Shown here in pieces: positions 1 through 55,012 of a stretch of DNA of 64,000 bases (position 1 is the stretch's first letter; each line of letters begins with the position of its first letter). The notes under the pieces were generated by a model, which searched no databases, was not told the origin of the DNA, and saw nothing but the letters and a program-made list of their open reading frames with translations. Source of the stretch: an uncultured Coriobacteriales bacterium (GTDB lineage: Bacteria > Actinomycetota > Coriobacteriia > Coriobacteriales > UMGS124); NCBI GenBank assembly GCA_934654475.1, contig CAKUFZ010000002.1, positions 86 to 64,085 on the forward strand, in the 5' to 3' direction. The translations under genes and the position numbers were made by a program.

Positions 1-70
1 CCCATAATATGTCTTATGTAAACCTGTATAAGTGAACATAGGAGCATATCTTCATACTTAAAGCGATGAA

Positions 71-112: not shown

Positions 113-156
113 GATTTTACGGCGATGACTTTGCGTGCAAAGTGAGTGGCTTCTGC

Positions 157-768: not shown

Positions 769-774
769 AGGGTC

Positions 775-2556: not shown

Positions 2557-2587
2557 CGTGTCCTCTCAATCCCTGGGTCTTTGGAAC

Positions 2588-3775: not shown

Positions 3776-3830
3776 ATCGACCTCCCCTGCTGCGCTTGCC
3801 TGTTACATCAACCTGACTATGGTACGCCTC

Positions 3831-9950: not shown

Positions 9951-10027
<77 letters not shown>

Positions 10028-25297: not shown

Positions 25298-25382
25298 TCT
25301 GCAATCTCCTTCAACTCCGCTCGCCCCATTGCGAGCGGGACCTATGCGCCTGCGCCCTGGCTATCGAGCCTTATGTGGACGC

Positions 25383-25411
25383 AAAACGAAAAGGGGCGCT
25401 AGTGCGCCCCT
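25383..25411 (-). terminator. Hairpin/attenuator between rpsO and pnp
   Basis: Stem aggggcgc (25392-25399) / gcgcccct (25404-25411) with a 4-nt loop, followed on the minus strand by tttcgtttt. It lies 11 nt after the rpsO stop. Confidence 0.75.
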
Positions 25412-25421
25412 AAAAGACAAC

Positions 25422-25697
25422 TTACTGGATGTTGTCGCGAAGCTCGAGCTTAGCGATGAGCTCACGATACTCGTTGATATCGTTGGAGCGGATGTAGCGA
25501 AGCAGCGAGCGACGGTGGCCGACGAGCATCAGCAGACCACGGCGGCTGTGGAAGTCGTGGGGGTGCTGCTTGCAGTGCTCGGTGAGCTCACGGATGCGAG
25601 CGGTGAGAAGAGCGACCTGAACGCGGGGGGTGCCGGTGTCGTTGGCATCCTTGCCGAACTCAGCGACGATAGCGGCCTTCTGCTCCTTGGTGACCAT
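25422..25697 (-). CDS. rpsO: 30S ribosomal protein S15
   Basis: 91 aa from MVTKEQKAAIVAEFG..HSRRGLLMLVGHRRSLLRYI. The ORF-track frame extends to 25817, but the internal Met is preceded by ggaaagga. The start coordinate is derived from the ORF-track frame. Confidence 0.93.
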   Translation of the reverse strand: MVTKEQKAAIVAEFGKDANDTGTPRVQVALLTARIRELTEHCKQHPHDFHSRRGLLMLVGHRRSLLRYIRSNDINEYRELIAKLELRDNIQ

Positions 25698-25958
25698 TGT
25701 GGTTCCTTTCCATCTAACCTGATAAAGACGCCCCTGTCTCAGATGCAATCCGATGGAGGTTGCAACCGGGGCAAGGGTCAAACGCAAGTAAGATACACCA
25801 TCCGCGTTTACTTTCACCTTTCATGCTCCCAAACAGCCCCGTCCACACGAAATCTGCGCTGGATTGAAGGCTCTTCGACTCTGAAAGTTTATCCTGGCGA
25901 AGTCTGTCTCGCGCAAAATCCCACGAGACGAAGCCGACGAGATACGCAAGGGGCGCAC

Positions 25959-26894
25959 ATGGTCACATTCATCTTTGACTTGCTCGGCAATATCCCCAAT
26001 GCCGCGCTCATCTATGCGCAAACGCGCCTGCTGCCCATGAAACACAAGTGGTGGTTTGCGCTCATCGAGGCAGTCCTGGCCGTGTCGGGAATGGTCTTCA
26101 AGCGCACGATAGGCACGCCGGGCTCTCCTGTCAGCCTCATTATCATTCTGCTCAATATATTTGTTGTACCGCCGCTCTTCTACGACAGAAAAATCCCCCT
26201 GGCACGCCGTCTCGTGGCATGTGCCGTCGCCCTGGGACTTCTGTGGTTCGGCGAGATGGCGTGCGGGCTCATCCTCGTTGCATGCGGCTTGCAGTACGGA
26301 GTCGACGACAACGTTGCCGAGGCAATCCCGCTCTACCTTTTCGTCGAGCTGCTTTTTGGCGCAATCATCTTGATCGGTCACAAGCCCCTCCGGGGACTTC
26401 TTGCACGGTGGAACAAGACATACGGTATGTCGCCCATGAGCGAGTCAGATGCAAAACGAGAGCTGATTTTCTCGGCTGTACCCATCTTCCAGGTCTTTTT
26501 CATGTGGGGGATGCTTCTTTTGCTCATGAACGCAAGCGACAAGGAGGGCCAGCTTCCCCTGTTGCTTGTCTCGGTTGCCCTGTTGTTGCTCTGCCTGGTG
26601 GTAGACGCGTTGCTTATCGTTGTGGCACGGCGCTGGAAGCGCACGTTGGAGCGGCAGGCCGAGGCGGAGGCGCTCTCTCACCAGCTTGACGAAGAGCTTC
26701 GCATGTACACGGACTTGAAGCGTCAGCTGGAGAAAACCGCGCACGCCCGCCATGACATGAACAACCACCTGCAGGTTCTCGCCATACTCGCAAAGCAGGG
26801 AGAGCCCGACCGCGCCGTTGAGTATGGCAAGCAGGTTCTTGCGAAGCTGGATGGTATCGAAGCGATGGATGCTGAGAAGGGGGCGGTTCAATAA
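25959..26894 (+). CDS. AgrC/HPK10-like sensor membrane protein with an H-box but no ATPase domain (truncated histidine kinase)
   Basis: About 311 aa from the ATG at 25959 (MVTFIFDLLG), which is preceded by aagggg. About 6 hydrophobic helices are followed by a coiled coil and the H-box HARHDMNNHLQVL. The ORF ends about 40 aa later with no N/G boxes. The upstream part of ORF 25329-26894 is antisense to rpsO and is ignored. Confidence 0.6.
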   Translation: MVTFIFDLLGNIPNAALIYAQTRLLPMKHKWWFALIEAVLAVSGMVFKRTIGTPGSPVSLIIILLNIFVVPPLFYDRKIPLARRLVACAVALGLLWFGEMACGLILVACGLQYGVDDNVAEAIPLYLFVELLFGAIILIGHKPLRGLLARWNKTYGMSPMSESDAKRELIFSAVPIFQVFFMWGMLLLLMNASDKEGQLPLLLVSVALLLLCLVVDALLIVVARRWKRTLERQAEAEALSHQLDEELRMYTDLKRQLEKTAHARHDMNNHLQVLAILAKQGEPDRAVEYGKQVLAKLDGIEAMDAEKGAVQ

Positions 26895-27838
26895 TGGATG
26901 CCGAGACGATCCGGACTGTCGCGTTTGTCTATGCCGCACTCGCCAGCGCCTCTCTGGCGGTGGCGTGCGTTGTCCTTTGGAGACGGCTGCGAACGTCTGC
27001 CCTCTACCGCAGGCTTGTCAACGTCCTCTTCCCCTTGAGTCAGCTGATTCTCTCGCTCTATGCGATATGGGCCGAGTCCGCATATGACCTGTCGGTCGGC
27101 GTGGTCTTTGTCACCGCGACGTTGGGCCTGGCATGTACGGCCTACGACGTCTTCTTCTTTCGCAGGCTTTTTACGGCTGAGGAAGAAGACATCGCCATCT
27201 ACAAGTCGCTTCTGCTGACGAGGCAGCTAAAGGCGATGATGCAGCATGGCGACTATCTTGACGAGCAGGCAGACAATGCGCGTGAAACGCGAGCCCGGCT
27301 GCGCCGTTGCATCGAGGATGCCCTCGAAGGTTTGCAGGGCGGCGATGACGATGCGGCTCAGGCTGCACTTGCGGAAGCAGCGCGCGTGAACACGCCGCCG
27401 GTCAAGTCCCTGTGCGACTCGCCCGTGCTCGACGCCTTGCTCAACGCGAAGTTAAACCATGCCCATGAGCTGGGGGTACCCTTGGAGGTCAAGGTAGATG
27501 TGCCAGAAAAGTCGACCGTGCCCGATGTCGAGCTTTGCGCCGTCTTCGCCAACCTCATCGACAACGCCCTCGATGCGGCGGCGCCCCTTGGTGAGAAAGC
27601 CTTCGTGGATGTGCGGGCCATACCCCGCGCTGGCTGGCTCTTCATTGACGTCCGCAACGCCTGCACCCCGGACACCCTGCCGTACAGCAGCAATGACATC
27701 AGTCCCAAAACCTTCTCGAAGGAACACGGATGGGGTCGCCAAATCGTGGACAAGCTGGCGCAGCGAAACGACGGCACCTTCAAAACCGAAGTCGCCGACG
27801 GCGTCTACAGCGCCCAGGTAACGATGAAGGTGGGGTGA
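26894..27838 (+). CDS. AgrC/HPK10-like sensor histidine kinase (GHKL ATPase domain)
   Basis: 314 aa with three N-terminal hydrophobic helices and a helical linker holding a possible degenerate H-box (MQHGDYLDEQ). The N-box is FANLIDNALDAA and the G-box region is KEHGWGRQIV. Its ATG overlaps the stop of the previous ORF (TAATG). Confidence 0.7.
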   Translation: MDAETIRTVAFVYAALASASLAVACVVLWRRLRTSALYRRLVNVLFPLSQLILSLYAIWAESAYDLSVGVVFVTATLGLACTAYDVFFFRRLFTAEEEDIAIYKSLLLTRQLKAMMQHGDYLDEQADNARETRARLRRCIEDALEGLQGGDDDAAQAALAEAARVNTPPVKSLCDSPVLDALLNAKLNHAHELGVPLEVKVDVPEKSTVPDVELCAVFANLIDNALDAAAPLGEKAFVDVRAIPRAGWLFIDVRNACTPDTLPYSSNDISPKTFSKEHGWGRQIVDKLAQRNDGTFKTEVADGVYSAQVTMKVG

Positions 27839-29734: not shown

Positions 29735-31630
29735 CTACCTGTACTTTAAGCCTCCAAGCAAACCCTTCTTGAAGCGCTTGACCTCATTCATGAAGGGCTC
29801 GTACCCATGCTCTACGCCCAGTTTTGCCATCTCGTAGCCTCGCTCGATAGCCCCGTCGCCGGGATTGCGCATTGTTTCGTCGTATTCAAGCAAGAGAGTC
29901 ATCTGAGCAAGGTCGAGATTGTCCGAATCCCCTTGTTCGATTTGTTTGAGACTTGCATTGGCATCTGAACCCAACGCTCGGCGCGCCCACTGGCGAGAAG
30001 CGCTCTCGTTTTCACATACAAGAACAAGCATGGCAGCAGTCACGGGGTCGGGACGCATGGACCAAGATTCCTCCAGGAACCGCACTGACCTCCTCTTGTA
30101 TTCTGCCGACAACGAGGAATCTTCTCGAGACAGTTGGGCGCTGAGGCGAAAGTAGCAGTAGCCTTTTGTAAACGCGCATGCAGCAAGGGTATCGTCCAGC
30201 CCGTCAAGATCTTCGGACTTCAAAGTGTGCTGCAAATCACCGATGTTGTCGTTCTTGATTCGCTTAATCCAGCTTGTCAGCTCGTTGGCACGCACAATGG
30301 CGGGTTCATCTGCTCCGATGCCCTTTTCTGCAAGAAGCAGTATCTTCGACGCGCCCATGAATATCCTGAATAATGACGGGTCGAGCGTGCCACCACGACG
30401 GAAAGCAACGTCGAGCCAGAATGACATTGGGTCGTACTGCTCTGCGCCATCCATATTAGAGGTATACTGCATTACTGCCTTGCTTATCCTGTCTCCTTGG
30501 CCGTTGTATGCCTCAAACCACAAATCTTCATCGATATCAGTATGTCTGACGGGGGCCAAATCAAGACGAGCAAGCTTGTACATAACCTTCGATGTGAAAT
30601 TATCCGAAAGGCCGAACATTGCGCCGTGCGCGAGCAGCCTACCCATCACGATGCTGGCCTTTGTGTCACTCCGAGGCACACCGACACCGAACAGATAGAT
30701 TGCAGCAACGCGAACGTATTCTTGCCAGTCCACGGTATCTTCTGTTGTCTCAAGGTCGATTGGTGCTTCAAGCAGGGCCTGATATCGCGCATTGGCACCT
30801 CGAAGAAACCTTGCATCTTCCAGAAGACCCTGGTCATCTCCTCCATTTGCGACGGCTTTGCGAAGCAACTCAACACCCTGTTGGCACTCGCTTTCATTTG
30901 CCTGCCTGTTGATGAGACAGCAGCCGTATTCAATCATGGCATCGACGTTGCCCGCGTCGGCGGCTTGCCGGAACCAGTTTTCGGCAAGGATGTACGACGA
31001 TGTTATGTCTTCACCCGGTTTGGCATAGTTACCGGATTGGTAATGAGCCCCCAAGCCGAGCATGGCCAGACCCCTTGAGCCGTTTTCGTCCTCCATAGTC
31101 GCGGCCTTCATGAGCAGCTCGTAGCCACGCTCCATGTCTGGCTCGACGGGATAGGGACTTTGGCTCGTTAGAATCATGCCATACTTGTAGCAAGCCCAAA
31201 CGCTGCCCATCTCAACGCCGCGCTCCAACAGGCGGCAGCCCTCGTCCGGGTTTCGCTCAACGCCCCAACCGTCAAAATAGCATAGGGCGAGGTAGTAGCA
31301 TGCCGCACCGACGTGCCAGCGCTCATTTTCGGATGCAGGCTCAGCCTCGCTGGCTCGGCGCAAATGCGTTATATAGGCGTTCTTATCAACGGGAATCTCT
31401 GAGTAAAACCCGTCGAACATAAATGCATACCTGTAGTTGCCCTCAATCGATCCCTTCTGCGCAGCAAGGCCCAACAAGCAACGAACTTTTGCCAAATCTT
31501 GCCCAATCAAGCCCTCGTCGTATTGGCTCTTTATGGAGCGCGCCTCAGAGAGCAGCTTGTCTGGTTCCATGTTTTCATGTTCGGCCTTAAACCCATGCAG
31601 GTTGTATACGTCGAGGTATGAGTCATCCAT
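29735..31630 (-). CDS. Sel1-like (TPR-class) repeat protein; candidate immunity or adaptor protein of the upstream toxin
   Basis: 631 aa with several Sel1-type repeats (AACYYLALCYFDGWGVERNPDEGCRLLERGVEMGSVWACYKYG; AENWFRQAADAGNVDAMIEYGCCL; AAIYLFGVGVPRS). It starts 11 nt after the toxin-like gene. Confidence 0.7.
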   Translation of the reverse strand: MDDSYLDVYNLHGFKAEHENMEPDKLLSEARSIKSQYDEGLIGQDLAKVRCLLGLAAQKGSIEGNYRYAFMFDGFYSEIPVDKNAYITHLRRASEAEPASENERWHVGAACYYLALCYFDGWGVERNPDEGCRLLERGVEMGSVWACYKYGMILTSQSPYPVEPDMERGYELLMKAATMEDENGSRGLAMLGLGAHYQSGNYAKPGEDITSSYILAENWFRQAADAGNVDAMIEYGCCLINRQANESECQQGVELLRKAVANGGDDQGLLEDARFLRGANARYQALLEAPIDLETTEDTVDWQEYVRVAAIYLFGVGVPRSDTKASIVMGRLLAHGAMFGLSDNFTSKVMYKLARLDLAPVRHTDIDEDLWFEAYNGQGDRISKAVMQYTSNMDGAEQYDPMSFWLDVAFRRGGTLDPSLFRIFMGASKILLLAEKGIGADEPAIVRANELTSWIKRIKNDNIGDLQHTLKSEDLDGLDDTLAACAFTKGYCYFRLSAQLSREDSSLSAEYKRRSVRFLEESWSMRPDPVTAAMLVLVCENESASRQWARRALGSDANASLKQIEQGDSDNLDLAQMTLLLEYDETMRNPGDGAIERGYEMAKLGVEHGYEPFMNEVKRFKKGLLGGLKYR

Positions 31631-31641
31631 AGCATGCTCCT

Positions 31642-33252: not shown

Positions 33253-33283
33253 GGCGCTCTCCCACGTCGAATCCTAAAAGCTG

Positions 33284-33562: not shown

Positions 33563-33601
33563 ATCAATCCTCCTTGAAATCCGATTTTTGCCTTGCAATG
33601 T

Positions 33602-33871: not shown

Positions 33872-34094
33872 ATTGATGCTCCGTTCTATCGTCAACGCCT
33901 GTTCCGTAACGTTCCAAAATCTGGCAGAACCCCTCGGTCTGTTCTCTTGCCTCCTCAATCAACTCAAGCATCGGCTTCACCTTGTTTTCTTGGAATTGCT
34001 CCGCATACCTATCCTGCCAAGCTGCTTCCGCTTTACCCCAAATGTTTCGGATGTCCCCCTCCAGGCCCAAAAGCTCTTCACCTACCAAAGCCAT
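33855..34094 (-). CDS. Small (79 aa) helical protein overlapping both neighbours
   Basis: The ATG at 34094 lies 10 nt upstream of the stop of the FtsK-like ATPase gene, and the gene end overlaps the next start by 17 nt. The sequence is LGLEGDIRNIWGKAEAAWQDRYAEQF.... Confidence 0.5.
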   Translation of the reverse strand: MALVGEELLGLEGDIRNIWGKAEAAWQDRYAEQFQENKVKPMLELIEEAREQTEGFCQILERYGTGVDDRTEHQYASYS

Positions 34095-37000
34095 TCCGAC
34101 CCATCCCTTTCGTCTTGACCGGTTGGTGAAAAGCTGCCCGGGAGTGCGGCAGATTCTTTGGAATCCGGCTCAGTCTCTAAGGGTTTTGCCACCTCGAGAG
34201 GTATGGTCTTGGCCACAGTCTCAACTACGTAAGGTCTGAAGAAAAACTCATGGCCGCTTGGGGTGTGATACACCATCTTGATTTTTGCCTCTTCGGGTTG
34301 GAGCGACGACGCGTTTGATTGCATGCCGATGCTCACCAGCTTCATTCGATCGGCATGCGTCGCAAAACGATGAGCAAAAAGTTCCGCCATATCCAATCCC
34401 CTTGCACCGAGAACTTTGTTGAGGTTTGGAACGGACGTAGAGAGCAAGCATATATGGACGTTGTTCAATGGCCCCCATTGAATCACACGGGCTATCAGCT
34501 CGCGTGCATCATCGGGCGAAGTCTTCGCTTCTTCGCTCTGACCTTTCTGGTGGTTTTCATATCGCACCATTGCCGCGCTTAAGGTGCTAACGCTGCTCGG
34601 CTGTTTTTTCTGCATTGACCTCTCAAACTCATACTGTGCCCTACTCATTTGCTGGCTCAGCTGCTCAAGACCCAAAACAACGATGAGCACGGGTGTTGAG
34701 GAGGCGAGATTACCCTCTTCAGCCCGACGGAAGAGATTGGCAATGGATGTTAAGTCGGTCATCTCTTCATAGTTGGGGAATACATCTCGAAGCGTCTGCC
34801 ATTTTGTTTGCGCAAAGCGCCAAGTCGGGTCGTTCTCAGGGGCAACGACAACGACACGATATCCAAGGCCCTGCTTCGAACAGGCTCCGATGATGGTCGT
34901 CTCCACCAAGTCGAAGGCAAGGTTCATCTCCGGATCAAGCACAAAGATGTTTTGTCCAATATTGCTGTTCAACGCGATTCGCAGGGTGGGATCAACAAAA
35001 CTCGACTTTGATCCTATAGGAACAAGACGAGAGCCCATGATATCAGTAGTCATTCGCTGACAATACTCGGTCCATGTAGGAGCGTCACGGCGAGTCGCAT
35101 CAAGATATTCAAATCTTTCATCCCAAGCTTTGCATGCATCGCCCAAACTTGCCCTGATCCTTTCGTTCGATGCGCACATCGCTTTGTCTTCCACGCATCT
35201 GGTGACACAGCGTATAGGCTTATGCCCGCCATGTTGGATGTAAGCATCGCCCTTCCCTAGAATCTCGAGGTCGGAAGAGTAAGTGGACGAAACCATCGCA
35301 CAAGGCTCTTGCCCGTTGGTGCCCCATGCCAAAAGCACGCGATTCGTCATGTTCGTCTGTACTGTCTTTTCGCCAAGCGCTTGAAGATTTGGGCCGTCTG
35401 TAAGACTCTGGTCGGCGATAAGGACATGCATGCCGTAAGCGCGGCATTCCTTAATCAGGTTCTGAAACTTGCGACTGTAGTTTGAGCTGTCATCTTTATT
35501 TAAGCGTGTGGCAGCCATAACGGCAGCCTGAGCATGAAACTCGTCAATTACCACCAAGAGGTACCGCATGTGCTCCAAGCCCAATTCGGGGTGCTTGGCA
35601 ACATAATAGTTGTATTCATTGATATCCCTGGCACTGGGGACGTTCTCCACCATGAGGGTCTGGCGATTTTTCATCTCGACATCATAAAGACGGTCGATGG
35701 CCACCTTTATGAAGTCCTCGGATGTATCGATTGCGACAAGTCCTATATGCGGGAAGCGCTGGTCAACATCCCTCAGACCCGCAAAATCGCTGCGCTTGTA
35801 ATCAATAATCCAGATTTCAAGGTCATCTGGAGAGTAGTGCGTGCAGGCAGCCTCGATGGCATTACGCAAGAAATACGTCTTACCGGACCCCGTCGTTCCC
35901 GTCACAATGCCATGTACATTCCCGCCCAGGTCAAAGCGCAACATGACGGCATTACCAAGCTCGTCGACAGCCACGGGCAGCTCTATGGCCTCTTCGATCT
36001 TGCTTACCTGCACATGAGCCAAATCAACAACTTCCGTCGGGTTGGCGGCATCACGCTTTTCCTGCGCCTTCTGCACGCTCAGCACAAGCTCGTCTGAAGT
36101 AAGGGCGGAATTGATGGGGTTGATGGGCTTGCAGCCACGGCCGGGGATATCGATGAGGTATCGTGCGCGTCCAGCTTGCGGATCCCAGCTCTCTGTGATG
36201 TTCGTCATGCTTTCGCGCAAAGCTCGCAGTCTTTCGTCAAACTTCTCGTCACCTCGCAGAGCGCTGCCGCACGAGACGAGCACCTGCACTCCGAGCCGCT
36301 TGCCGTCTCTGACGAACGATTCGATGAGGTCGAGGGTCCTAGTTCCAAAATGCTTGTTGGATAAGTCGTTTATCACAACAATCGTCTGCGGAATCGCCTT
36401 CACTGCATTGGCCCGCGCGTTGTATTTTCGCAGGCTTCCAAAAGACGCAATGGCAGGGCCAAGGTCTCCTGTGCGGTTCTCGAGAACGGTATTCATCCTT
36501 CCCGTATCTTGCTCAGTCGAGGCGACCTTAATGATGGTGTCCTCCCGGCGCTCGATACGGGATGACAGGTCGGCAAGCTTTCCCAAAGAGAGGCCGGCGT
36601 TTGTGGGGTCAAGCCAGTAAACCTCGAGGCCGCCCAAGGGCGTGCAACGGATGGCCGTGGACACAATGGCTCGCATCCAGGCGAGTGCCGCCTCTTTGTC
36701 GTTGTCTACCGTGAACCAGCATCCCTGGAGGTTGTCCCAATCAAACGAATAGGGTACGTAAAGGTCGACCCCAGCACCTTTTGCCTCGACCATGCCTATC
36801 GGGGTATACCGAGGAAACTCTGTGACTTGCCTGATTGCACCGAAGTCGGCGTTGCCCAGCACTTGCACGCGATTGGCAATCTCGGCACGACATTGATAAC
36901 CTATACGCTCGGACTCAGTATTTGATTCCAACCGCGCCCTAAGGTGTCGCCTGTCCTCCTCATACTTTGTCTCCAGGTTGCGAAGCTCCCTTGCAATGGC

Positions 37001-37675
37001 CTGAGATGCCGATGTGTCAATCGCTTGGGCATCCGCACGCCGCCGCGCGTCCCTCTCCGCCTCGGCATGCTTTGCGCTCCATTCGTTTTGCAGCACACGT
37101 TGGCGCTTCTCCGCATCGGCTTGCATCGAACGCTCATCTCGATCGATGCGTTTCTGCTCATCTTGCACCATAGCCTTCAGCAAAGAGCACGCCTCATCAC
37201 GCTGCATTGTCCCTTTGAGGTGGAAGAGGCGCTTGAGCCACGTCAAAAAAGATATGTCAGCCATTTGAGCCAGAAGGACTTCAAGCTCTGAATCGGAGGT
37301 GTTTCTTGCGTCTTGAATATGTTTCGGCCATATGGGGGTGTTCGCAAGGTCACCCGGGATGCGTGCAAGGACCCTGGAACAGCGGTCTCGACGATCTTGC
37401 ACGGCACGACGCTCACTCTCAATCTCTGTTGAGAGTACTTGGAGACGAGCGTTGTATTCCCTATCAATCTCGGCAACGCCCTCAACCTGAGGATGCGCCA
37501 GCCGAGCGGCAAGGCTCGCCTCGATGCACTCTGCCTCGCGCTTGCGTCTCATGCAGTCGCTGCGCCTCTCCTCGTATTCCCTTGTGAGGCAATCGAGCCT
37601 TAACTGTCCGTCGTCTGACGCCGTTGCAAAGCCATCGATGCGCGAGGCAATCATCTCGTAGAACTCATCGACCAT
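34082..37675 (-). CDS. Atypical FtsK/SpoIIIE-family ATPase: coiled-coil N-terminus, three P-loop-like modules with only the middle one intact, no TM segment
   Basis: 1197 aa. The middle module has Walker A GIVTGTTGSGKTYF, Walker B YLLVVIDEFH and an FtsK-type RAYGMHVLIADQS. The flanking modules keep beta-strand/Walker-B-like strings (TIVVINDLS; VLIVVLGLEQL) but have no GxxGxGK[ST]. The first roughly 300 aa are E/R/A-rich coiled coil. I saw no hydrophobic helix. Confidence 0.75.
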   Translation of the reverse strand: MVDEFYEMIASRIDGFATASDDGQLRLDCLTREYEERRSDCMRRKREAECIEASLAARLAHPQVEGVAEIDREYNARLQVLSTEIESERRAVQDRRDRCSRVLARIPGDLANTPIWPKHIQDARNTSDSELEVLLAQMADISFLTWLKRLFHLKGTMQRDEACSLLKAMVQDEQKRIDRDERSMQADAEKRQRVLQNEWSAKHAEAERDARRRADAQAIDTSASQAIARELRNLETKYEEDRRHLRARLESNTESERIGYQCRAEIANRVQVLGNADFGAIRQVTEFPRYTPIGMVEAKGAGVDLYVPYSFDWDNLQGCWFTVDNDKEAALAWMRAIVSTAIRCTPLGGLEVYWLDPTNAGLSLGKLADLSSRIERREDTIIKVASTEQDTGRMNTVLENRTGDLGPAIASFGSLRKYNARANAVKAIPQTIVVINDLSNKHFGTRTLDLIESFVRDGKRLGVQVLVSCGSALRGDEKFDERLRALRESMTNITESWDPQAGRARYLIDIPGRGCKPINPINSALTSDELVLSVQKAQEKRDAANPTEVVDLAHVQVSKIEEAIELPVAVDELGNAVMLRFDLGGNVHGIVTGTTGSGKTYFLRNAIEAACTHYSPDDLEIWIIDYKRSDFAGLRDVDQRFPHIGLVAIDTSEDFIKVAIDRLYDVEMKNRQTLMVENVPSARDINEYNYYVAKHPELGLEHMRYLLVVIDEFHAQAAVMAATRLNKDDSSNYSRKFQNLIKECRAYGMHVLIADQSLTDGPNLQALGEKTVQTNMTNRVLLAWGTNGQEPCAMVSSTYSSDLEILGKGDAYIQHGGHKPIRCVTRCVEDKAMCASNERIRASLGDACKAWDERFEYLDATRRDAPTWTEYCQRMTTDIMGSRLVPIGSKSSFVDPTLRIALNSNIGQNIFVLDPEMNLAFDLVETTIIGACSKQGLGYRVVVVAPENDPTWRFAQTKWQTLRDVFPNYEEMTDLTSIANLFRRAEEGNLASSTPVLIVVLGLEQLSQQMSRAQYEFERSMQKKQPSSVSTLSAAMVRYENHQKGQSEEAKTSPDDARELIARVIQWGPLNNVHICLLSTSVPNLNKVLGARGLDMAELFAHRFATHADRMKLVSIGMQSNASSLQPEEAKIKMVYHTPSGHEFFFRPYVVETVAKTIPLEVAKPLETEPDSKESAALPGSFSPTGQDERDGSEWLW

Positions 37676-37708
37676 GACAGCATCACCTTTCCCTTGTACT
37701 AGTGTGCC

Positions 37709-38952: not shown

Positions 38953-38963
38953 ATGTCCTCTCC

Positions 38964-42098: not shown

Positions 42099-42099
42099 C

Positions 42100-45472: not shown

Positions 45473-46490
45473 ACTCTCCTTTGCGCCGCACGCCCCACAC
45501 GGGGCGCACGCGGGCTATGCGCCTCTTGTCCATAATGTCCACGCAACATGGGCAGGAAGCGAGCCGCGAGGACTCGCCCTCCACGAGAAAGCTGTGACCG
45601 CAGCCACCAGGTGGGCAATCGATGAACCAGCCTTCCACCAAATCCGACGCATCGGATTCAGAACCGCCGGAACAGGCCTCGACAGAAGACGGGTCCACAT
45701 TTGAACAAGCGGTTAGACCTTCATCAAAAGACGAGCCTGCACACGTAGCCAGTGCCGGAGCGTCGGACGCTTGTTCCCCATCGCCAGGTACAACCCGCTT
45801 TGAGGAAGAAGCATTGGCGGCCACACCCAAAGGCTGGATATGAATTCGAAACGAAATGTCGGCCATGCGGAGTGTATCGCCATCATGGATGGGAGAATCG
45901 AAGTCGCGACCAAGGTTGATGCTGCCGTTTGGTGTAAACAAGACGGAGGGGTTGCTGCCGGCATGCATGGCAGACCAGCCGGCGCCATAGGGCTTGAACA
46001 GCACATGGGTTCGGCTGATGTGCGCACAATCGGCAAGAACGTCAGACCCGAAGTCGCCTTCACGCCCGACAAAGCCGCCATGAGGACCGATTTCGATAAC
46101 AGCCCCTGTACTCAGCATTTCGAGAAAGAGCCTGGTCGGAGCATCGCTAGCACGCCCTTGGATCGAAGGCGAAGGCATCGGGCTGGAGGGCGAGAGCACT
46201 TGCCCAGCGCAAGGCGAGGGACGGGATGCCGGCTGAGGCGCCTCATGGGCTCCAGATGACGGGCTTTGGCAGGAAGCCAATGGTGGGCAATCCCAAACAG
46301 GTTCCAATGCCTCGGGCTTATATGGTTGAGACTGAAAACGAGGCTGGGATTGGCACTGGGAAACGGAACCCGGTCCAGATGGTTGCCCCGTGCCAGACGG
46401 GCTTTCTACCTGACGTTCGTTGGAACATACCAGGCAGATGTCTGCCCCATCCGGGTTTTCAGTACCGCAAAAAATGCACGTCCACGCCAT
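45453..46490 (-). CDS. FHA-domain protein flanked by N- and C-terminal zinc-ribbon-like motifs
   Basis: 345 aa with N-terminal WTCIFCGTENPDGADICLVCSNE and a P/S/Q-rich linker. The FHA core is FVGREGDFGSDVL..ISRTHVLF..GSNPSVLF. The C-terminus carries CPPGGCGHSF...CPCCVDIMD. Confidence 0.7.
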   Translation of the reverse strand: MAWTCIFCGTENPDGADICLVCSNERQVESPSGTGQPSGPGSVSQCQSQPRFQSQPYKPEALEPVWDCPPLASCQSPSSGAHEAPQPASRPSPCAGQVLSPSSPMPSPSIQGRASDAPTRLFLEMLSTGAVIEIGPHGGFVGREGDFGSDVLADCAHISRTHVLFKPYGAGWSAMHAGSNPSVLFTPNGSINLGRDFDSPIHDGDTLRMADISFRIHIQPLGVAANASSSKRVVPGDGEQASDAPALATCAGSSFDEGLTACSNVDPSSVEACSGGSESDASDLVEGWFIDCPPGGCGHSFLVEGESSRLASCPCCVDIMDKRRIARVRPVWGVRRKGEFDDARG

Positions 46491-46493
46491 GCC

Positions 46494-47915
46494 TTACTCC
46501 GCCTGCCTCTCGACAAGGTTTTCGTCTTCGTAAAAACCAGTCCTGCGACGGCCCCGTGCTGCCTGTGACGGAACAGTCGACTGACCGCAAGTTTGGAAAG
46601 ACACCGAGTTGGACTCGGAAGCGGGCTTATCAGCCGTCTTATTGAGAACAACTCCGTATTCGGCCAGCTCCTGTGACAGCTGCCCAAAGAGGGTGCAGAA
46701 CTGTTGCTGTTGCATCACAAGCTGACGTCTCTCCCACTCGCCTTGCGCAGCGACTCGTTCGATGACCATACCGTCGGGTCCCTCTGCCAAGCCTGGCCCA
46801 TACGAGGCGGTTTCCATCATCACGGCTCCTTGCTGTGGCGAGACGGCAACGTGAATCGCCGTGCCCTGGCTCTCATCGAGATATAGGGAGTGAGGAAATG
46901 CCCCCTGCGAATTAGCAAGGGAGGCAAGCTGAACCGAGCGTTTGACGTTATAGCCATGACGTGCCATCACCTCGTCGATTGCATGGGCGATATAGGCGTT
47001 TCGTGCCGCGCAATCCGCCTCTTTATACAAGGCGTCGCGAAGCTGAGAAAGCATATCGGCGTCTGTCATTTGCCAAAGAGGAGGCAGGTCCGTCGATTGC
47101 ATGTCGAGGGCGTCGCACCGAGCCTTCAAAGCACGGCACTCGTTGTATAGGTCCTCAACCAGCGCGACCTCTTTACTGAAATGGCTGATGAGGCTTTCCC
47201 CGATATTCAGCCTGCCTCGCATCTCTAGGAGGCGTTCCTCGGGATGGGCCGCATAAGCGTCAGCCGTCGCCTTGAGGTCGTCGACATATTTCATGAGAGC
47301 GGCAAGGTGACGCTCCGAAAGCGCGCCGCTCAAAGCAAGTTGTTGAAACGCCGCCCTCTGCTTGGATGCCCGATCGAGCAAGTCATTCAGTGGCTGCACA
47401 TCACCGGCCGATTCTTTGAGGTCCTGAAGACGCCGAAGGACGAGGTCGACGCTGCTCAGAAGTGGTGTGCATGGCTTAGTTTGCTTGACATCGAGGTTTT
47501 CGACGAACTCCATGGCCCTTTTTGTTCGGTCCTCCTGGCGCAAGTAAGCGCCCTCCGCATCGCGCATTCCAAAGGAGATGTCATCCACGCGCCGCCGAAA
47601 GTCGTCAAGCTCCCCGTTCAGCTTCTTTTCGAGCCAATCGTTGTACTCCACAGCCTCCATGACCTCATCGGGATACTTCTCTGATGCAAGACGCGCGAAC
47701 CGCGCCTCAAGTTGACTTGTCATAGAAACGCATCTTTGAAGTTCATTTTCTCCCCAAGCACCCATTGCCCCAGCACGGCGCATCACACCGTCCGCAATGT
47801 CATGAGCCTTGCGGCATGCGCCTTTGACAATCTTGGTATTGCGGTCACGTTGGGCCTGCAGCTGTGCCAGCCTGTATGACTCAATCTTCATCAACCCAGA
47901 TTTAGGACCGCTCAT
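46494..47915 (-). CDS. Hypothetical protein, first gene of the operon (helical N-terminal half, unknown family)
   Basis: 473-aa ORF that ends 3 nt before the next start. About 380 nt of non-coding DNA and a terminator lie upstream. I recognised no motif. Confidence 0.6.
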   Translation of the reverse strand: MSGPKSGLMKIESYRLAQLQAQRDRNTKIVKGACRKAHDIADGVMRRAGAMGAWGENELQRCVSMTSQLEARFARLASEKYPDEVMEAVEYNDWLEKKLNGELDDFRRRVDDISFGMRDAEGAYLRQEDRTKRAMEFVENLDVKQTKPCTPLLSSVDLVLRRLQDLKESAGDVQPLNDLLDRASKQRAAFQQLALSGALSERHLAALMKYVDDLKATADAYAAHPEERLLEMRGRLNIGESLISHFSKEVALVEDLYNECRALKARCDALDMQSTDLPPLWQMTDADMLSQLRDALYKEADCAARNAYIAHAIDEVMARHGYNVKRSVQLASLANSQGAFPHSLYLDESQGTAIHVAVSPQQGAVMMETASYGPGLAEGPDGMVIERVAAQGEWERRQLVMQQQQFCTLFGQLSQELAEYGVVLNKTADKPASESNSVSFQTCGQSTVPSQAARGRRRTGFYEDENLVERQAE

Positions 47916-48295
47916 GACAAGACCCTTTCATCAAACGGGCGCATCAGCAAAACTTCGTTGCCGTGCCCTTTTGTTTGCCAGGTGAATTGTCGTAGATGCG
48001 ACACGCATCAGAGTCTTACTTGCACAACAGGCATCCCAGATGTTCCAACCAGTCTAATCAAACCAGTTGCCGGAGAAACAAACACTTACACATGCTAACA
48101 GTCCTCAAAGAGACGCCAACTCTTCCAGACTTCTCACCGCCGCAACCTGAAGCTTATGTCCATAGCTCATCTACGGCCTACCGCCATATCCAACCACACG
48201 AGCACCAGGAATGGTACCTTGGGAGTCGGGCTGCATACATGTAATGAAGTCAGCAAAATGAGAGGCCCAATTACCCCGATGTCTTGGAATCAGGA

Positions 48296-48333
48296 AGAAA
48301 AAGGTTCCCCACGACGAAATCATAGGGAACCTT
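48296..48333 (-). terminator. Rho-independent terminator closing the radical-SAM peptide operon
   Basis: Stem aaggttccc (48301-48309) / gggaacctt (48325-48333) with a 15-nt loop. An A-run on the + strand (48298-48302) reads as a T-run after the hairpin on the minus strand. It lies about 75 nt past the 71-aa ORF stop. Confidence 0.65.
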
Positions 48334-48408
48334 TCAGATGGTTCCGCCACTCAGAATGAGCAAGAGTGACTGAGAACCGGCCGGACTGTCACCTAAAGCT
48401 TTGCGCCT

Positions 48409-48624
48409 TTAGTAAAACTTCAGATACTCCTGAATCTTTCTTGCAGCGGAGGCTTCTCCCTTACTCAGGGCGACAGAGATTGCGTCTTCAAGTGCCCGAC
48501 GGGCCACTGTGTCGCCTCTGGAATCATCACCGCATTCATCCGCCTTCAGGATGTAGTGCGAAACAAGATTCCATTCATCAGAGGTCAGCTTTCGTTCAAG
48601 CTCACTAGCAAGGCGCGAGTACAT
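48409..48624 (-). CDS. Small (71 aa) helical protein of unknown function, last gene of the peptide operon
   Basis: The ATG at 48624 is preceded by ggtgga, 6 nt upstream. The sequence is MYSRLASELERKLTSDEWNLVSHYILKADECGDD.... Confidence 0.5.
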   Translation of the reverse strand: MYSRLASELERKLTSDEWNLVSHYILKADECGDDSRGDTVARRALEDAISVALSKGEASAARKIQEYLKFY

Positions 48625-48659
48625 GTTTATCCACCGACCCTCTTCAATCTTGTCTGAGC

Positions 48660-48842
48660 TTATTTACCGACGCAATAGAGCATGCACTTGCTACCGCACG
48701 GCGTTCCGCCACCGGGAACAGAATAAGGCTGACAAATGGTGCTGCACGAGGCGAAACCACTCATTCCAAGCTGGCTAACCATTCCGTAGAAATGCCCAGC
48801 AGAGCCACACGTGCCGTAGGAAGCTTCACGAACGATTTCCAT
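48660..48842 (-). CDS. Candidate RiPP precursor peptide with six cysteines
   Basis: 60 aa from the ATG at 48842 (the ORF track uses the GTG at 48851); aggtg lies 6 nt upstream of the ATG. The sequence is MEIVREASYGTCGSAGHFYGMVSQLGMSGFASCSTICQPYSVPGGGTPCGSKCMLYCVGK. It starts 51 nt downstream of the SPASM maturase stop. Confidence 0.6.
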   Translation of the reverse strand: MEIVREASYGTCGSAGHFYGMVSQLGMSGFASCSTICQPYSVPGGGTPCGSKCMLYCVGK

Positions 48843-48893
48843 AATTTTCACCTTTCGAGCATGCCTTCGAATAAGACTTCTTTGCCGACCCGC

Positions 48894-50180
48894 TTATTCA
48901 CTCCTTTCATTGTGTCGCAGGTTGTCCATATATGAAACGGCATCAAAAACCGCATCATAGGTATAGCGAATGTAAGGACAACGACCATATCCAAAGCCCA
49001 TCGCTAGACCCGCATAGCATCCAGCTTGGCACGACGGAAGATACGAGCACTCCTCACATTCTTGTGGAAGGGCCGGATTTGCCCAGAAATCCATTGCGTC
49101 ATTGAACTCAACGCCTGTTTCCAGTGTCCCCACCAGGTCTCGTTTATCTCCAAGAAAATGATCGCATTTCGAAACGAAACCATCGGGGCCAATACAAAAG
49201 TTATTCAATCCTCTGGCACAGCATGAGGCGTTGTTAAAGTTTAAAGGCAAATCATTGACGCTTGTAATTAGGCCCGAATCAATCATGGCATGGAAAATAG
49301 ATTTGTATACCTCAGTCAATTCCTCTTTTTCAAAACAGGACTTGTCTCCAAGCGTACTGTACAGCGGGGCCACATGTGCCGAGAAAAGCTGCGAGTTGGC
49401 AAATCGTTTGCCGAGCATATGGATGAGTCGAAGAACAGAGGAGTGATTGTTTTTATCCGCGTTTATACGCACAGAAACCGCGATGCCTGCGTCAAGAAGG
49501 CAGTCTATACTGTCAAAAATAGAAGAGAGTGTGTAATCTCCACTCACATAGTTTTTTCGCTTCCCGTACTCACTCTCATCGCCGTCGAGAGAAATCTGTG
49601 CATTGCCCACATGGCATCTTTTGAGTAAATGCGCGATATCATCTGTTACAAGCGAGCCATTACTTATTATATCCGCCGTATAGCCAACTTCTCGTTGTTC
49701 CGCATTCTCAATTAGAGCCTCGGAGATTCGTTCGATAAAATCTGGTCGAAGCAGCGGTTCGCCGCCAAACCAAGTCACGTGTATATGCTTTGCGATTCCC
49801 ATATAACTGGAAATAAACTCGACGAGCTTCGGTTCCAAACTTTCAGGAAACGATTGGGACACAAAATCTTGCTCATAACAATAGGGGCACCGCGCATTGC
49901 AGGCAGTGGTGGGCAAAATCTGAAATGCAGCATTGTCCGTAGAGTAGTTATTCACATACCTAAGCGCTTTGACCTTGCCGAGTTCATTTGTTTCAACCGG
50001 AACAAGAAAGCCATTTTGAACAAAAGCCCCCGCTTCCTCTTGGGTCCACTGTCCTTTCTCAAAGCGTTCATAGCAAGCCGAGTCCAACTTGACAACAGCA
50101 GAAGACACCAGATTGAACATCAGGACTTGGTTTTCATTAATCCGACCAACATGGTTATAAAACGAGCGCTTGTAGTCCAT
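48894..50180 (-). CDS. Radical-SAM/SPASM-domain peptide maturase
   Basis: The radical-SAM cluster motif is TTACNARCPYCYEQ. The C-terminal SPASM-type cysteine pattern is CCARG..FCIGPDGFVSKCDH..CEECSYLPSCQAGCYAG..GRCPY. The start is taken at the ATG at 50180, preceded by gggaga; the ORF track uses the TTG at 50207. Confidence 0.8.
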   Translation of the reverse strand: MDYKRSFYNHVGRINENQVLMFNLVSSAVVKLDSACYERFEKGQWTQEEAGAFVQNGFLVPVETNELGKVKALRYVNNYSTDNAAFQILPTTACNARCPYCYEQDFVSQSFPESLEPKLVEFISSYMGIAKHIHVTWFGGEPLLRPDFIERISEALIENAEQREVGYTADIISNGSLVTDDIAHLLKRCHVGNAQISLDGDESEYGKRKNYVSGDYTLSSIFDSIDCLLDAGIAVSVRINADKNNHSSVLRLIHMLGKRFANSQLFSAHVAPLYSTLGDKSCFEKEELTEVYKSIFHAMIDSGLITSVNDLPLNFNNASCCARGLNNFCIGPDGFVSKCDHFLGDKRDLVGTLETGVEFNDAMDFWANPALPQECEECSYLPSCQAGCYAGLAMGFGYGRCPYIRYTYDAVFDAVSYMDNLRHNERSE

Positions 50181-50329
50181 TCTCTCTCCCGAAAACCATT
50201 CGGACAATTTTTCAAATATAGATTAGGCATTGTCAAACCCTTGCAACACCTCGCAACCGAAATGTCGCGTTTATGTTCCAAGTCGTTGGACATTGAAACT
50301 CGCGCACAATATGGCAATCAGGGACCTCA

Positions 50330-50364
50330 ACAAAAACGCCCTCTTCCAGATTGAGGAAGAGGGC
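50330..50364 (-). terminator. Rho-independent terminator after the 169-aa gene
   Basis: 10-bp stem gccctcttcc (50338-50347) / ggaagagggc (50355-50364) with a 7-nt loop, followed on the minus strand by gtttttgtt. Confidence 0.8.
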
Positions 50365-50438
50365 ATAACTTACAGACCCGACTTTGCAGCTTCTCGTTCC
50401 AAAATTGCCGTCCTTGCGACAGGACAACCCATGAGAAC

Positions 50439-50948
50439 CTATTCCCCACCCAAAAGTTCATCAATGGTCTCGTCGACGCACTGTCTTAGGCTGTCGTAGT
50501 ACATCTGCTCTTCTTCAACTTTTCCAGAATCCGTAGTGAGCCCAGTCACAGCTTTGCGAATCATGCCGCTAAGGCTAAAGCCGTCGGATTGATCCGCAAG
50601 GCGCGTACGTTGCATCCCCTTTGAAACGGCGCCGAGGCCAATACCATTGATTTCTACAACAGCAGCAATTTTGTTGAAACCTACGAGGAACCACGCATAG
50701 TCTGTACCCGGAAACGTGAACTTGACACCAGCCTGTTCCTTCTTTGACAGAAGACCCCCAGTCTCAATCAAGCCATACTCCGCCGCCACTTCGATGCCAC
50801 AGCCATCGCGCATTGCAGAGACTACTGCTTCACCCACCTCCTTGGCAACCATGCTCGGCTGGATGTTTGCTGCTCCCCTATAGCGCCTGGTAAGGAAAAG
50901 ATTGGGATGTTTCGAAAGCTGATCTTTGTAGGAAAATAGTACCGCCAT
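50439..50948 (-). CDS. Hypothetical 169-aa protein (monocistronic)
   Basis: The ORF has ggag 9 nt upstream of its ATG and its own terminator. I recognised no motif. Confidence 0.55.
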   Translation of the reverse strand: MAVLFSYKDQLSKHPNLFLTRRYRGAANIQPSMVAKEVGEAVVSAMRDGCGIEVAAEYGLIETGGLLSKKEQAGVKFTFPGTDYAWFLVGFNKIAAVVEINGIGLGAVSKGMQRTRLADQSDGFSLSGMIRKAVTGLTTDSGKVEEEQMYYDSLRQCVDETIDELLGGE

Positions 50949-51392
50949 TAGAGAACTCCAATCTTTAAACGTCCGATATTAGACTCCGCAAGTGTAGATA
51001 ACTTGAGTACCATCGTGTCATCTCCTTACCAAACGGTAGCTTTGATGTTCCAACCTGAAATTGCATGAATACGCCGCTTGAGACGTTGGATGATATGGAA
51101 GGCAATGAACAAGTCACTGGGACGGCCGGGTGGGGTCAGGGTATTGAGCGAAGTAATTGTTCCTCGTCAGCAGAAAACACAATGAATGACGGTCTACCTG
51201 CTATTATGATAAAAAGTTCATCATCTGCTAGGCAATTCAGGAACTCAAGCGGCACCCGTGCCGCCCATATTCTCAAACCCAGAAGTGTCCTCAGATCGCG
51301 TCACATGGATTTCCGGACAGGACACGGCAAAATATCCTGACGGCTCTTCCTGGCCAGTCTATTACCAGTATGAGAGAAATCGCAACGATGTG

Positions 51393-52124
51393 CTACCTGT
51401 CCATCGTTTGGGACAACCTGTTACGCCAGAAATTGTTGAATGAATCTTGTACTTGATGTCGGCGGCCTCGAGCAACCGGGATGACTGTTCCAGAGCTGAG
51501 ATGTACTGTATCTGAATTGAGGCCGACCACATGGCGAACATTGACGATAAAGCTTTTGTGGCATTGGACGAAAGAAGAGGGGAGCATCTTTACCGTGTCA
51601 GAGAGGCGCATGTATGAGCGGACAGTTTCACCGTTAATGAGATGGAACTCCACAATACGCTTCCAGCTTTCAACATATAGGATGTCAGTTGGTTTAACGA
51701 TACGATCTCCTTGGATGCTGTGAATCAGGAGAGGGCCGATACAGCGTTTCGCTGCATTATAAATCGCCTGGTCAATAATATGAAACAGCTCGTCATCACG
51801 AATGGGTTTCATGAGAAAGAACGAGTCCACGATGTTGCGAACGCGGCCGTACATGCCGCTATGACCTGTAACGTAAACAATCTGAGTGCCATGCTCAGAA
51901 AGCCGAGATTCTTTGACAATCGAAACACCATCGGCGTCGTCTTGCCCGAGACAGATGTCGCAAAAAAGGATATCGATTCCCGAAACACTTCTCAGGGAGT
52001 TCAGTTCCTCGGCACTCGCACATGTTGCGATTTCGAAATCATCGGCTTGAGGATGGCGCGATATGCGCTGCTTTAAATCTTCCGCCTGAAGAGAGTTGTC
52101 ATCGAGTATTGCCAGGCGGTACAA
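51393..52124 (-). CDS. LytTR-family response regulator (REC + LytTR DNA-binding domain)
   Basis: REC features are ILDDNS, ILFCDICL, VYVTGH and LMKPI. The LytTR domain is HLINGETVRSYMRLSDTVKMLPSSFVQCHKSFIVNVRHV. I prefer the TTG start at 52124, with gaagggga 7 nt upstream, which gives a typical 243-aa protein. The ORF-track ATG at 52271 would add 49 atypical residues. Confidence 0.8.
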   Translation of the reverse strand: MYRLAILDDNSLQAEDLKQRISRHPQADDFEIATCASAEELNSLRSVSGIDILFCDICLGQDDADGVSIVKESRLSEHGTQIVYVTGHSGMYGRVRNIVDSFFLMKPIRDDELFHIIDQAIYNAAKRCIGPLLIHSIQGDRIVKPTDILYVESWKRIVEFHLINGETVRSYMRLSDTVKMLPSSFVQCHKSFIVNVRHVVGLNSDTVHLSSGTVIPVARGRRHQVQDSFNNFWRNRLSQTMDR

Positions 52125-52214
52125 AACAGCATCCCCTTCATACGGAAACAGAATCAGAACAGAGCTAAAAAACTGCTGTAGTATAAGGATACTAGAGCAG
52201 GATTCGCCTTTTTC

Positions 52215-52225
52215 GGGGGGGGGGG
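52215..52225. repeat. G11 (C11 on the coding strand) homopolymer upstream of the LytTR regulator
   Basis: Counted directly: tttcgggggg gggggatttg gives 11 consecutive G at 52215-52225. Confidence 0.9.
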
Positions 52226-52229
52226 ATTT

Positions 52230-52259
52230 GTTCCGAACTGTAAGTTTGAGGTTCCGAAC
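52230..52259 (-). promoter_or_regulatory. Candidate LytTR-regulator binding site: two perfect 9-bp direct repeats with a 12-bp spacer
   Basis: gttccgaac occurs at 52230-52238 and again at 52251-52259 (GTTCGGAAC on the minus strand). The 21-bp periodicity places the pair immediately upstream of the C11 tract and the regulator gene. Confidence 0.5.
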
Positions 52260-52322
52260 AGCCATCAACAAGACTCATACCGTACAGAACTTCACGTCAC
52301 GCACATAAAAAGTCAACCAGCA

Positions 52323-54937: not shown

Positions 54938-55012
54938 GAAAAAGCCTCTTCAACAATTACGAAATCTGAACGCGTGCCTTACAAACAAACCTGAAAACTA
55001 TACCGCCGTGCC

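Follow-up and report, generated by a model that had tools for sequence, protein, structure and literature searches.

A candidate thioether-type RiPP operon with a radical-SAM/SPASM maturase and a Cys-rich peptide on a low-GC island of an uncultured Coriobacteriales bacterium

In the ranthipeptide system CteB/SCIFF-thermocellin (PDB 5WGG/5WHY), a radical S-adenosylmethionine (SAM) enzyme with a SPASM region is combined with a peptide carrying a short, Cys-rich C-terminal core. SCIFF peptides comprise ~45 aa with six Cys located C-terminally and are broadly conserved in Clostridia; their loci are not known to include a dedicated transporter. In the Clo7bot system (maturase CtpM), many tandem precursors of 40-55 aa, with a basic N-terminal leader and a repeated CxxxC spacing, are encoded upstream of the maturase and an ATP-binding cassette (ABC) transporter downstream of it. 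The maturases of TIGR04463 and CefB (Cys-every-fifth) likewise partner Cys-rich substrates, with the example examined comprising a 680-aa substrate with a long Cys-every-fifth tail and an extra C-methyltransferase. PapB (freyrasin) and QhpD form Cys-to-Asp/Glu thioethers, and thuricin CD-type sactipeptides show a hairpin-like core with CxxxC/CxxxCxxxC spacing. Here, we analyzed a window of 64,000 nt from an uncultured Coriobacteriales bacterium (GCA_934654475.1, contig CAKUFZ010000002.1), in which a radical-SAM/SPASM maturase gene and an adjacent gene for a Cys-rich peptide form a small, acquired operon. Enzyme and peptide very probably represent the maturase and the precursor of a peptide that is made on the ribosome and then post-translationally modified (RiPP). 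The central features of this operon are the following (window coordinates):

48894..50180, minus strand: radical-SAM/SPASM peptide maturase, 428 aa (Pfam, NCBIfam, Foldseek, invariant Cys)
49941-50180, minus strand: predicted RiPP recognition element (RRE)-like domain of the maturase, ~aa 1-80 (AlphaFold2 model)
48660..48842, minus strand: putative precursor peptide, 60 aa (homologues, alignments, codon bias, adjacency to the maturase)
48663-48746, minus strand: conserved core of the peptide, aa 33-60, CSTICQPYSVPGGGTPCGSKCMLYCVGK (alignment)

A first-pass annotation of the window had proposed a RiPP cluster composed of a maturase and a six-cysteine peptide encoded 51 nt downstream. This spacing is exact, with the peptide ATG at 48842 preceded by AAGGTG, and Cys residues are indeed found at positions 12, 33, 37, 49, 53 and 57; however, only five of them (C33, C37, C49, C53 and C57) are conserved in the family, with C57 missing in one outlier peptide, and Cys12 belongs to the variable leader and is found in this lineage only. 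In alignments of the relatives, the N-terminal part varies and the C-terminal core hardly changes. In the leader (~aa 1-30), M1, R5 and F18 are invariant and a Gln at ~24-25 is near-invariant (pattern M-x-[VIL]-[VIL]-R ... F ... Q). The family core has the pattern C-x-(T/H)-I-C-x-x-Y-x-[4-6 residue Pro/Gly-rich loop]-T-P-C-G-x-x-C-x-x-Y-C-x-G-K, and the Cys are its most strictly conserved residues. Among ten distinct 28-codon cores, codon differences fell on 675 third positions versus 151 first and 120 second positions, with 541 synonymous versus 170 non-synonymous differences. This third-position bias and synonymous excess rule out a chance ORF, and by this codon comparison the 60-aa ORF is a real gene under purifying selection.

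The pairing of both genes recurs in other genomes. A search of 5.8 billion proteins with the peptide recovered eight relatives, and a profile search of 1.84 billion cluster representatives ~12 peptide-sized relatives (50%-identity clusters). Scans for the peptide detected 2 loci in 185,579 species genomes and 16 loci in metagenomes; further loci came from enzyme-side look-ups. In every related locus with enough flank, representing ~14 lineages, the peptide directly follows a homologous enzyme (38-96% identity), even where gene callers had missed it. None of 11 members of the peptide family had a match in Pfam or NCBIfam (including the SCIFF model), even at E <= 10, and no match was obtained between the precursor and the peptide models of the TIGR04463, Clo7bot, geopeptide and CefB systems. 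Altogether, the short ORF adjoining a maturase, the variable leader, the conserved core and selection at the level of translation are features of a RiPP precursor, and the proposed cluster is supported by comparative genomics, purifying selection on the peptide and the domain architecture of the enzyme.

The same evidence bears on a very improbable alternative, in which the small protein is not a substrate. It would instead be a Cys-rich mini-protein that binds metal or Fe-S clusters, or it would give rise to a small redox cofactor, as in the case of pyrroloquinoline quinone (PQQ) and mycofactocin; the radical-SAM enzyme would then have another target or cut out the cofactor. In favor of this, metal binding is conceivable for the CxxxC pairs, DnaJ-type zinc-finger proteins of small size are found repeatedly in the neighbourhood, and RRE-SPASM enzymes also make peptide-derived cofactors (PqqE, MftC). 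However, the conservation of leader and core follows the pattern of a RiPP precursor, no oxidase, peptidase or other cofactor-tailoring enzyme is conserved at the related loci, and the mycofactocin and PQQ models are not among the top matches of the maturase.

The maturase starts with MDYKR, with a GGGAGAG ribosome-binding site before its ATG, and homologues share the start M-x-YK-x-S-x-YNH; a TTG-extended form of the ORF reaches 50207. Pfam identified the domains Radical_SAM (PF04055, E = 4e-17) and Fer4_12. The CNARCPYC motif (CX3CX2C) is located at residues 94-101 (nt 49878-49901), and C94, C98 and C101 are invariant in 41 homologues. Exactly seven of the nine Cys in the C-terminal region are invariant in the same homologues (C320, C339, C375, C378, C384, C388 and C401; aa 320-401, nt 48978-49223). 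Their spacing, C320-x13-G334-x4-C339 ... C375-x2-C378-x5-C384-x3-C388 ... C401, satisfies the SPASM motif C-x9-15-G-x4-C ... C-x2-C-x5-C-x3-C ... C, in agreement with the radical-SAM/SPASM assignment made at first pass. An invariant eighth auxiliary-cluster Cys is absent among the 41 homologues. In CteB, an open iron site reportedly binds a substrate thiolate, and seven rather than eight auxiliary Cys would fit such a site.

The AlphaFold2 model of the maturase (predicted local distance difference test, pLDDT, 92.9) shows an N-terminal domain, then a radical-SAM barrel and then the SPASM region. In the predicted N-terminal domain (aa 3-78, pLDDT > 89), beta strands come first and three helices after them; the PqqD hidden Markov model gave no match to it. 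Foldseek returned CteB as the best structural match (TM-score 0.71 over the full length, N-terminal recognition domain included), followed by an anaerobic sulfatase maturase, TigE, SuiB, ChlB and SkfB, and a PDB sequence-profile search also ranked CteB first (E = 7e-33). Among the NCBIfam models, the highest bit scores (curated cutoffs in brackets) were obtained for TIGR04463 with 161.6 (525), Clo7bot with 159.9 (600), geopeptide with 149.3 (400), CefB with 144.6 (600), PapB with 100 (340) and QhpD with 78.5 (453), and ScfB, the SCIFF maturase, reached 52.8 (425). NCBIfam SPASM maturase models and CteB also align over the C-terminal region. Since the top models are RiPP maturases of Cys-rich substrates and all scores lie below cutoff, the maturase is, judged by its sequence, a new subfamily within the peptide-modifying SPASM group; for the same reason, function transfer from any single family is loose. 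Anaerobic sulfatase-maturating enzymes, the clade that the first-pass annotation had set against a RiPP function, ranked tenth (64.7 bits, cutoff 349) and differ by the extra N-terminal domain and the dedicated conserved peptide next door found here, so that the RiPP reading stands.

Compared with the described systems, the locus combines likeness and difference. As in CteB/SCIFF, a radical-SAM and SPASM enzyme meets a short Cys-rich C-terminal core, but the maturase is only ~16% identical to CteB, the peptide has five conserved Cys at a different spacing, and, unlike SCIFF, its family is rare, patchy and island-borne. Clo7bot, the second-best NCBIfam match, aligns over nearly the full length of the maturase, and the repeated CxxxC spacing of its precursors is found in the peptide here as well; unlike in Clo7bot, the maturase shares 28% identity, the core sequences are unrelated, and a single precursor lies downstream of the enzyme with no transporter. 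TIGR04463 and CefB are the best and fourth-best matches, but the score of the maturase reaches a third or less of their cutoffs and the Cys spacing differs from that of the example examined. PapB and QhpD are the nearest biochemically characterised models after the uncharacterised top ones; unlike for these enzymes, the core lacks an Asp or Glu acceptor in most members. Sactipeptides share the hairpin-like core and the CxxxC/CxxxCxxxC spacing. Similarity of the maturase to sactisynthase models is weak, with SkfB giving a weak match in both sequence and structure, and unlike in the SkfB, AlbA and TrnC/D systems, Cys residues are expected on both hairpin arms rather than on one, and neither transporter nor protease accompanies the pair. 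Classical bacteriocin loci differ in a similar way; the comparison covered the complete island in which the operon resides:

25300-52300: low-GC island of ~27 kb, GC 0.46-0.60 versus ~0.64 in the flanks, between pnp and a mtaB/miaB-like gene

No dedicated ABC exporter, C39 or other peptidase was found in this 27-kb island or in any related locus, and neither a conserved double-glycine site in the leader nor a signal peptide occurs in the ~14 lineages. The first-pass remark that no leader protease or ABC exporter is nearby thus extends to all loci compared.

Based on these data, the following mechanism may be proposed. The 60-aa product would serve as the precursor, and its leader of ~30 aa would be bound by the N-terminal RRE-like domain of the maturase. 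The radical-SAM core would cleave SAM to generate a 5'-deoxyadenosyl radical, which would lead to hydrogen abstraction from residues of the 28-aa C-terminal core. C33, C37, C49, C53 and C57 would sit on the two arms of a Pro/Gly-rich turn and would be joined to carbons of other core residues as thioethers of the sacti- or ranthipeptide type, with two SPASM auxiliary Fe-S clusters assisting the cross-linking, and the product would be a compact polycyclic hairpin. In some lineages, the module might be under LytTR two-component control. We infer the leader-RRE interaction, the thioether nature and the link positions; thioether chemistry, which we favor slightly on sequence and model comparisons, is suggested by the ranking of related families and structures together with the strict conservation of the Cys. 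The reading as a whole, i.e. a RiPP operon on a horizontally acquired cassette with thioether cross-linking and a cell-associated product, appears reasonably probable.

Several observations weigh against this reading. The Pfam SPASM profile did not match the maturase at E <= 0.01, though the motif is visible, and every NCBIfam score is far under its curated cutoff. TigE, SuiB and ChlB are also good structural matches, and SPASM enzymes are also known to catalyse C-C and C-O bond formation, epimerisation and cyclopropane formation. The core residues Tyr40 and Tyr56 never vary; each occurs in a CxxY context and is followed by x-(V/A), which could suit other types of cross-link. Regarding the cell-associated role, a peptide with no route for export or cleavage is unusual for an active RiPP, and LytTR/AgrC-type regulators usually accompany secreted peptides.

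The invariant Tyr residues, in particular, would suit a different chemistry on the same pair, which we consider improbable: C-C or C-O links (e.g. cyclophanes on Tyr40/Tyr56), epimerisation or another radical modification, with the five Cys forming disulfides or binding metal. SuiB forms a Lys-Trp link and TigE cyclopropylglycine, the cyclophane-forming maturase models AmcB (44.6 bits) and GrrM/OscB (42.7 bits) also match the enzyme, and a second radical-SAM enzyme is located next to the peptide in three of the related loci (L009, L021 and L032 in our numbering). However, models of thioether or Cys-rich-peptide maturases score 2-4x higher than the cyclophane models, CteB is the best match in both structure and sequence, and no other core residues are conserved as strictly as the Cys.

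The operon and the genes adjoining it, which together form the cassette, contain the following further features; the maturase, peptide, 71-aa, 169-aa and LytTR genes are all encoded on the minus strand:

48300..48334, minus strand: intrinsic terminator at the operon end, 15-16 bp stem followed by a U-rich tract (fold z, inverted repeat I1)
48409..48624, minus strand: 71-aa protein, predicted helical, non-membrane, last gene of the operon (homologue in one other lineage)
50207..50236, minus strand: sigma-70-like promoter candidate of the maturase operon, TTGACA-18-AAAAAT (10/12 consensus positions)
50336..50366, minus strand: terminator-like hairpin separating the 169-aa gene from the maturase operon (stem and T run, repeat I3)
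50439..50948, minus strand: 169-aa protein, cytoplasmic, no transmembrane (TM) segment, the most widely shared accessory of the cassette (homologues at related loci)
51393..52271, minus strand: LytTR-family response regulator (Pfam Response_reg and LytTR; no kinase adjacent)

The gap between the peptide ORF and the 71-aa ORF is 35 nt. As expected at first pass, the predicted helical 71-aa protein is followed by a terminator, which lies ~75 nt beyond its ORF (16-bp stem and U-rich tract, fold z = -3.71) and whose stability was reached by 0/200 shuffles. The promoter candidate is a consensus match only, and such sites are no commoner in the region than in shuffled sequences. The hairpin at 50336-50366, with a 12-bp stem including 7 GC pairs, a T run and a 10-nt perfect inverted repeat (I3), closes the separate 169-aa gene upstream of the maturase operon. 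A further 7-bp hairpin, which at first pass had been placed at ~48853-48890 and suggested as a possible means of tuning the stoichiometry of maturase and peptide, exists as an inverted repeat at 48869-48875/48893-48899, overlapping the maturase stop codon; the minimum-energy fold does not contain it, and the folding stability of the region does not exceed that of shuffles (z = 0.03), so that the stoichiometry role is at chance level and was rejected. An Rfam scan of 47800-52400 gave no match, and no LytTR-type direct repeats were found upstream of the operon or of the 169-aa gene.

Two genes that the first-pass annotation had not considered are the upstream 169-aa accessory gene, which is better conserved than the 71-aa gene, and the LytTR regulator. 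Homologues of the 169-aa protein (family size ~165 aa) with 36-44% identity are encoded beside the maturase in L008, L013, L024/25 and L026-28, and a more distant form of 172-174 aa is present in L009/L020/L029. The protein had no match in Pfam, NCBIfam, PADLOC or the PDB, a word-indexed homology search returned only itself, and its single-sequence AlphaFold2 model was unusable (pLDDT 47.5). The 71-aa protein is 33% identical to a 73-aa protein beside the cassette in L004-L007. Both were recovered reciprocally by jackhmmer, in those two lineages only; with no family match and no TM segment, the 71-aa protein is a lineage-limited accessory. The likely true start of the LytTR regulator is near 52124, as the listed ORF is TTG-extended. 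In L026-28/L035, a regulator of 35% identity accompanies the cassette, and L034 has another LytTR regulator next to it.

Three further genes or gene pairs of the island are possibly linked to the cassette (weaker evidence):

25329..27838, plus strand: split AgrC-like histidine kinase (Pfam, TM scan)
29735..31630, minus strand: Sel1-repeat protein, 631 aa (Pfam Sel1)
34082..37675, minus strand: FtsK/SpoIIIE-like ATPase, 1197 aa, no TM segments (Pfam, NCBIfam)

Because these genes lie elsewhere in the island, their linkage to the cassette is only suggestive here. The first gene of the split kinase (25329-26894) encodes 6 TM segments and a SpoOB-type H-box domain, the second (26894-27838) 3 TM segments and a GHKL ATPase, and the pair shares 31% identity over 286 aa with one located between regulator and cassette in L026-28. 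Kinase and orphan LytTR regulator lie at opposite ends of the island here; in L026-28/L035, the two are direct neighbours and adjoin the cassette. The combination of a LytTR regulator and a split AgrC-like kinase recurs in L026-28/L035 and in L034. The Sel1 protein shows 23% identity over 575 aa to a 710-aa Sel1 protein encoded between the 169-aa homologue and the maturase in L026-28, and at least 7 lineages have Sel1 proteins at the flanks of the cassette, some of which carry a fused CFI-box-CTERM domain. In L009/L020, L029 and L032, TM-less homologues of the FtsK-like ATPase are encoded upstream of the cassette at a distance of a few genes; the ATPase of the island itself has weak nSTAND, EccC and SspH-like matches. 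A function as an EssC/EccC-type membrane secretion motor is weakened by the lack of TM segments in the hydropathy scan, also in the homologues, and by type VII secretion system scores far under cutoff. In L032, the region upstream of the cassette (1-4565) encodes an FtsK-like ATPase, then two helical proteins of ~100 aa that appear WXG100-like by eye only, a protein of 287 aa that contains an HExxH motif, and a pair of DUF6273 proteins.

DnaJ-type zinc-finger mini-proteins recur near the cassette, and a second radical-SAM enzyme is found near it in L009/L020, L021, L032 and L011. CFI-box-CTERM proteins (NF041770) are encoded in L009 (11567-12046), L011 (2459-3505), L001 (1423-3063), L004 (1613-2872) and L021 (~4483-4749). 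These loci lack the 169-aa protein of the window type (36-44% identical); L009/L020 also hold the distant 174-aa form. Since the CFI-box-CTERM gene directly follows the second radical-SAM gene in L009 and L011, this second enzyme may act on the CFI-box domain. The literature search returned no paper on the CFI-box domain or on TIGR04463, and only unrelated papers for OhkG/FlmE.

Next, we considered the island as a whole. It is bordered by pnp (23039-25297) and the mtaB/miaB-like gene (52323-53816), and the cassette (48.4-52.3 kb) forms its lowest-GC end. The lowest 1-kb GC of the window, 0.462, is reached at 49001-50000, as a spot count at first pass had indicated. The cassette may have been acquired separately from the rest of the island. 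Its maturase sequence occurs exactly on 13 contigs, compared to 143 for the neighbouring DnaJ, and the cassette is therefore probably strain-variable. Just beyond the island, two tandem DnaJ paralogues of 373 aa and 362 aa are encoded (53816-56101, minus strand); the sole tRNA of the window, tRNA-Pro (GGG) at 9951-10027 (minus strand), lies away from the island boundary. Between kinase and cassette, a predicted protein with AAA-ATPase_like and PD-(D/E)XK nuclease (PDDEXK_9) domains (27945-29525, plus strand) is oriented opposite to most island genes. A conflict-system-like set (29735-42140, minus strand) comprises the Sel1 protein of 631 aa, an effector-associated-domain protein (EAD9, 536 aa), the FtsK/SpoIIIE-like ATPase, a DedA/VTT membrane protein, a YARHG-domain protein and a Ser/Thr kinase of 1058 aa whose TM segments are C-terminal. 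The operon of overlapping genes at 42100-47915 (minus strand), syntenic only in the 96%-identical locus L010, encodes a PP2C phosphatase, a ClpB-like AAA+ protein of 660 aa that has one ATPase module and weak PADLOC PDC-M37B matches, an NrdG-like radical-SAM activase of 200 aa that lacks a glycyl-radical enzyme in its vicinity, a 345-aa zinc-ribbon protein whose central part is FHA-like by eye with no FHA profile match, and a 473-aa protein of no known family.

The hosts of the cassette include Coriobacteriaceae, a Clostridia metagenome-assembled genome (MAG) and a Succinivibrio MAG, and in other lineages it adjoins serine recombinases or transposases. The gut genome analyzed here is itself assigned to the Coriobacteriaceae, the name borne by the members of its DnaJ cluster. 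The peptide family was not found in viral contigs, and plasmids yielded maturase relatives only at 28% identity or less. In L033 (8001-9442), transposases flank a SPASM enzyme of 32% identity and the unrelated Cys-rich peptide that comes after it and ends in CSDCSDCSDNCFCGWGG; this pair may represent a sister RiPP family. As this enzyme pairs with an unrelated peptide, the family boundary falls between 38% and 32% enzyme identity.

Which role does the product fulfil? The chance that it acts in a non-classical way, i.e. with no dedicated export, is in our view about even. One rival, which we regard as unlikely, is a secreted bacteriocin or autoinducing signal that uses unlinked general machinery for export and cleavage and either kills competitors or is sensed by the AgrC-like/LytTR pair. 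LytTR regulators together with AgrC-like (HPK10-type) kinases occur in three lineages, this island included, and such systems usually control secreted peptides. Moreover, a patchy distribution, low GC and neighbouring recombinases or transposases, all seen for the cassette, are frequent among competition genes, and the small downstream proteins could be immunity factors. On the other hand, ABC transporters, C39 or other peptidases, double-glycine sites and signal peptides are lacking in ~14 lineages, the recurrent accessory proteins have no TM segments according to the TM scan, and direct-repeat LytTR boxes were not found upstream. Because no lineage has an exporter or leader protease and the recurrent neighbours are cytoplasmic, we tentatively think it likelier that the product is a cell-associated or intracellular factor of a mobile competition, conflict or signalling module rather than an exported bacteriocin.

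A more specific version of this role, which is doubtful at present, sees the peptide as a cytoplasmic or cell-associated effector or signal of a mobile conflict- or defence-type module and not as an exported antibiotic. It would work together with the ~165-aa protein, the Sel1-repeat adaptors, the DnaJ-type zinc-finger mini-proteins and the TM-less FtsK-like ATPases. Radical-SAM-modified peptide effectors have been predicted for NTPase-centred conflict systems (Kaur et al. 2020, PMC7159879). In the Clostridia MAG, the flanks of the cassette (L009, 3523-4719 and 12849-15629) encode a toxin domain of the papain-fold glutamine deamidase type, a reverse transcriptase and a protein with a Macro domain; such flanks are typical of a defence or conflict island.

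Altogether, the peptide represents a rare and undescribed family within a familiar kind of system, of which many families are uncharacterised. The family is absent from Pfam, NCBIfam and the searchable literature, and its core-motif strings occur in no searchable paper. Gut anaerobes have, through their radical-SAM/SPASM RiPPs, already provided new peptide chemistry and narrow-spectrum antimicrobials, and with its exceptionally conserved 28-residue core this peptide lends itself well to heterologous co-expression. Since exporter and protease are lacking throughout the family and the recurring partners are cytoplasmic, the question arises, as it does for SCIFF, which role such a peptide plays in or on its producer. 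A link to the FtsK-like ATPase and the Sel1 proteins, if functional, would tie RiPP chemistry to the conflict systems of bacteria, and the effector reading, if true, would provide an experimentally tractable example of the predicted radical-SAM-modified peptide effectors.

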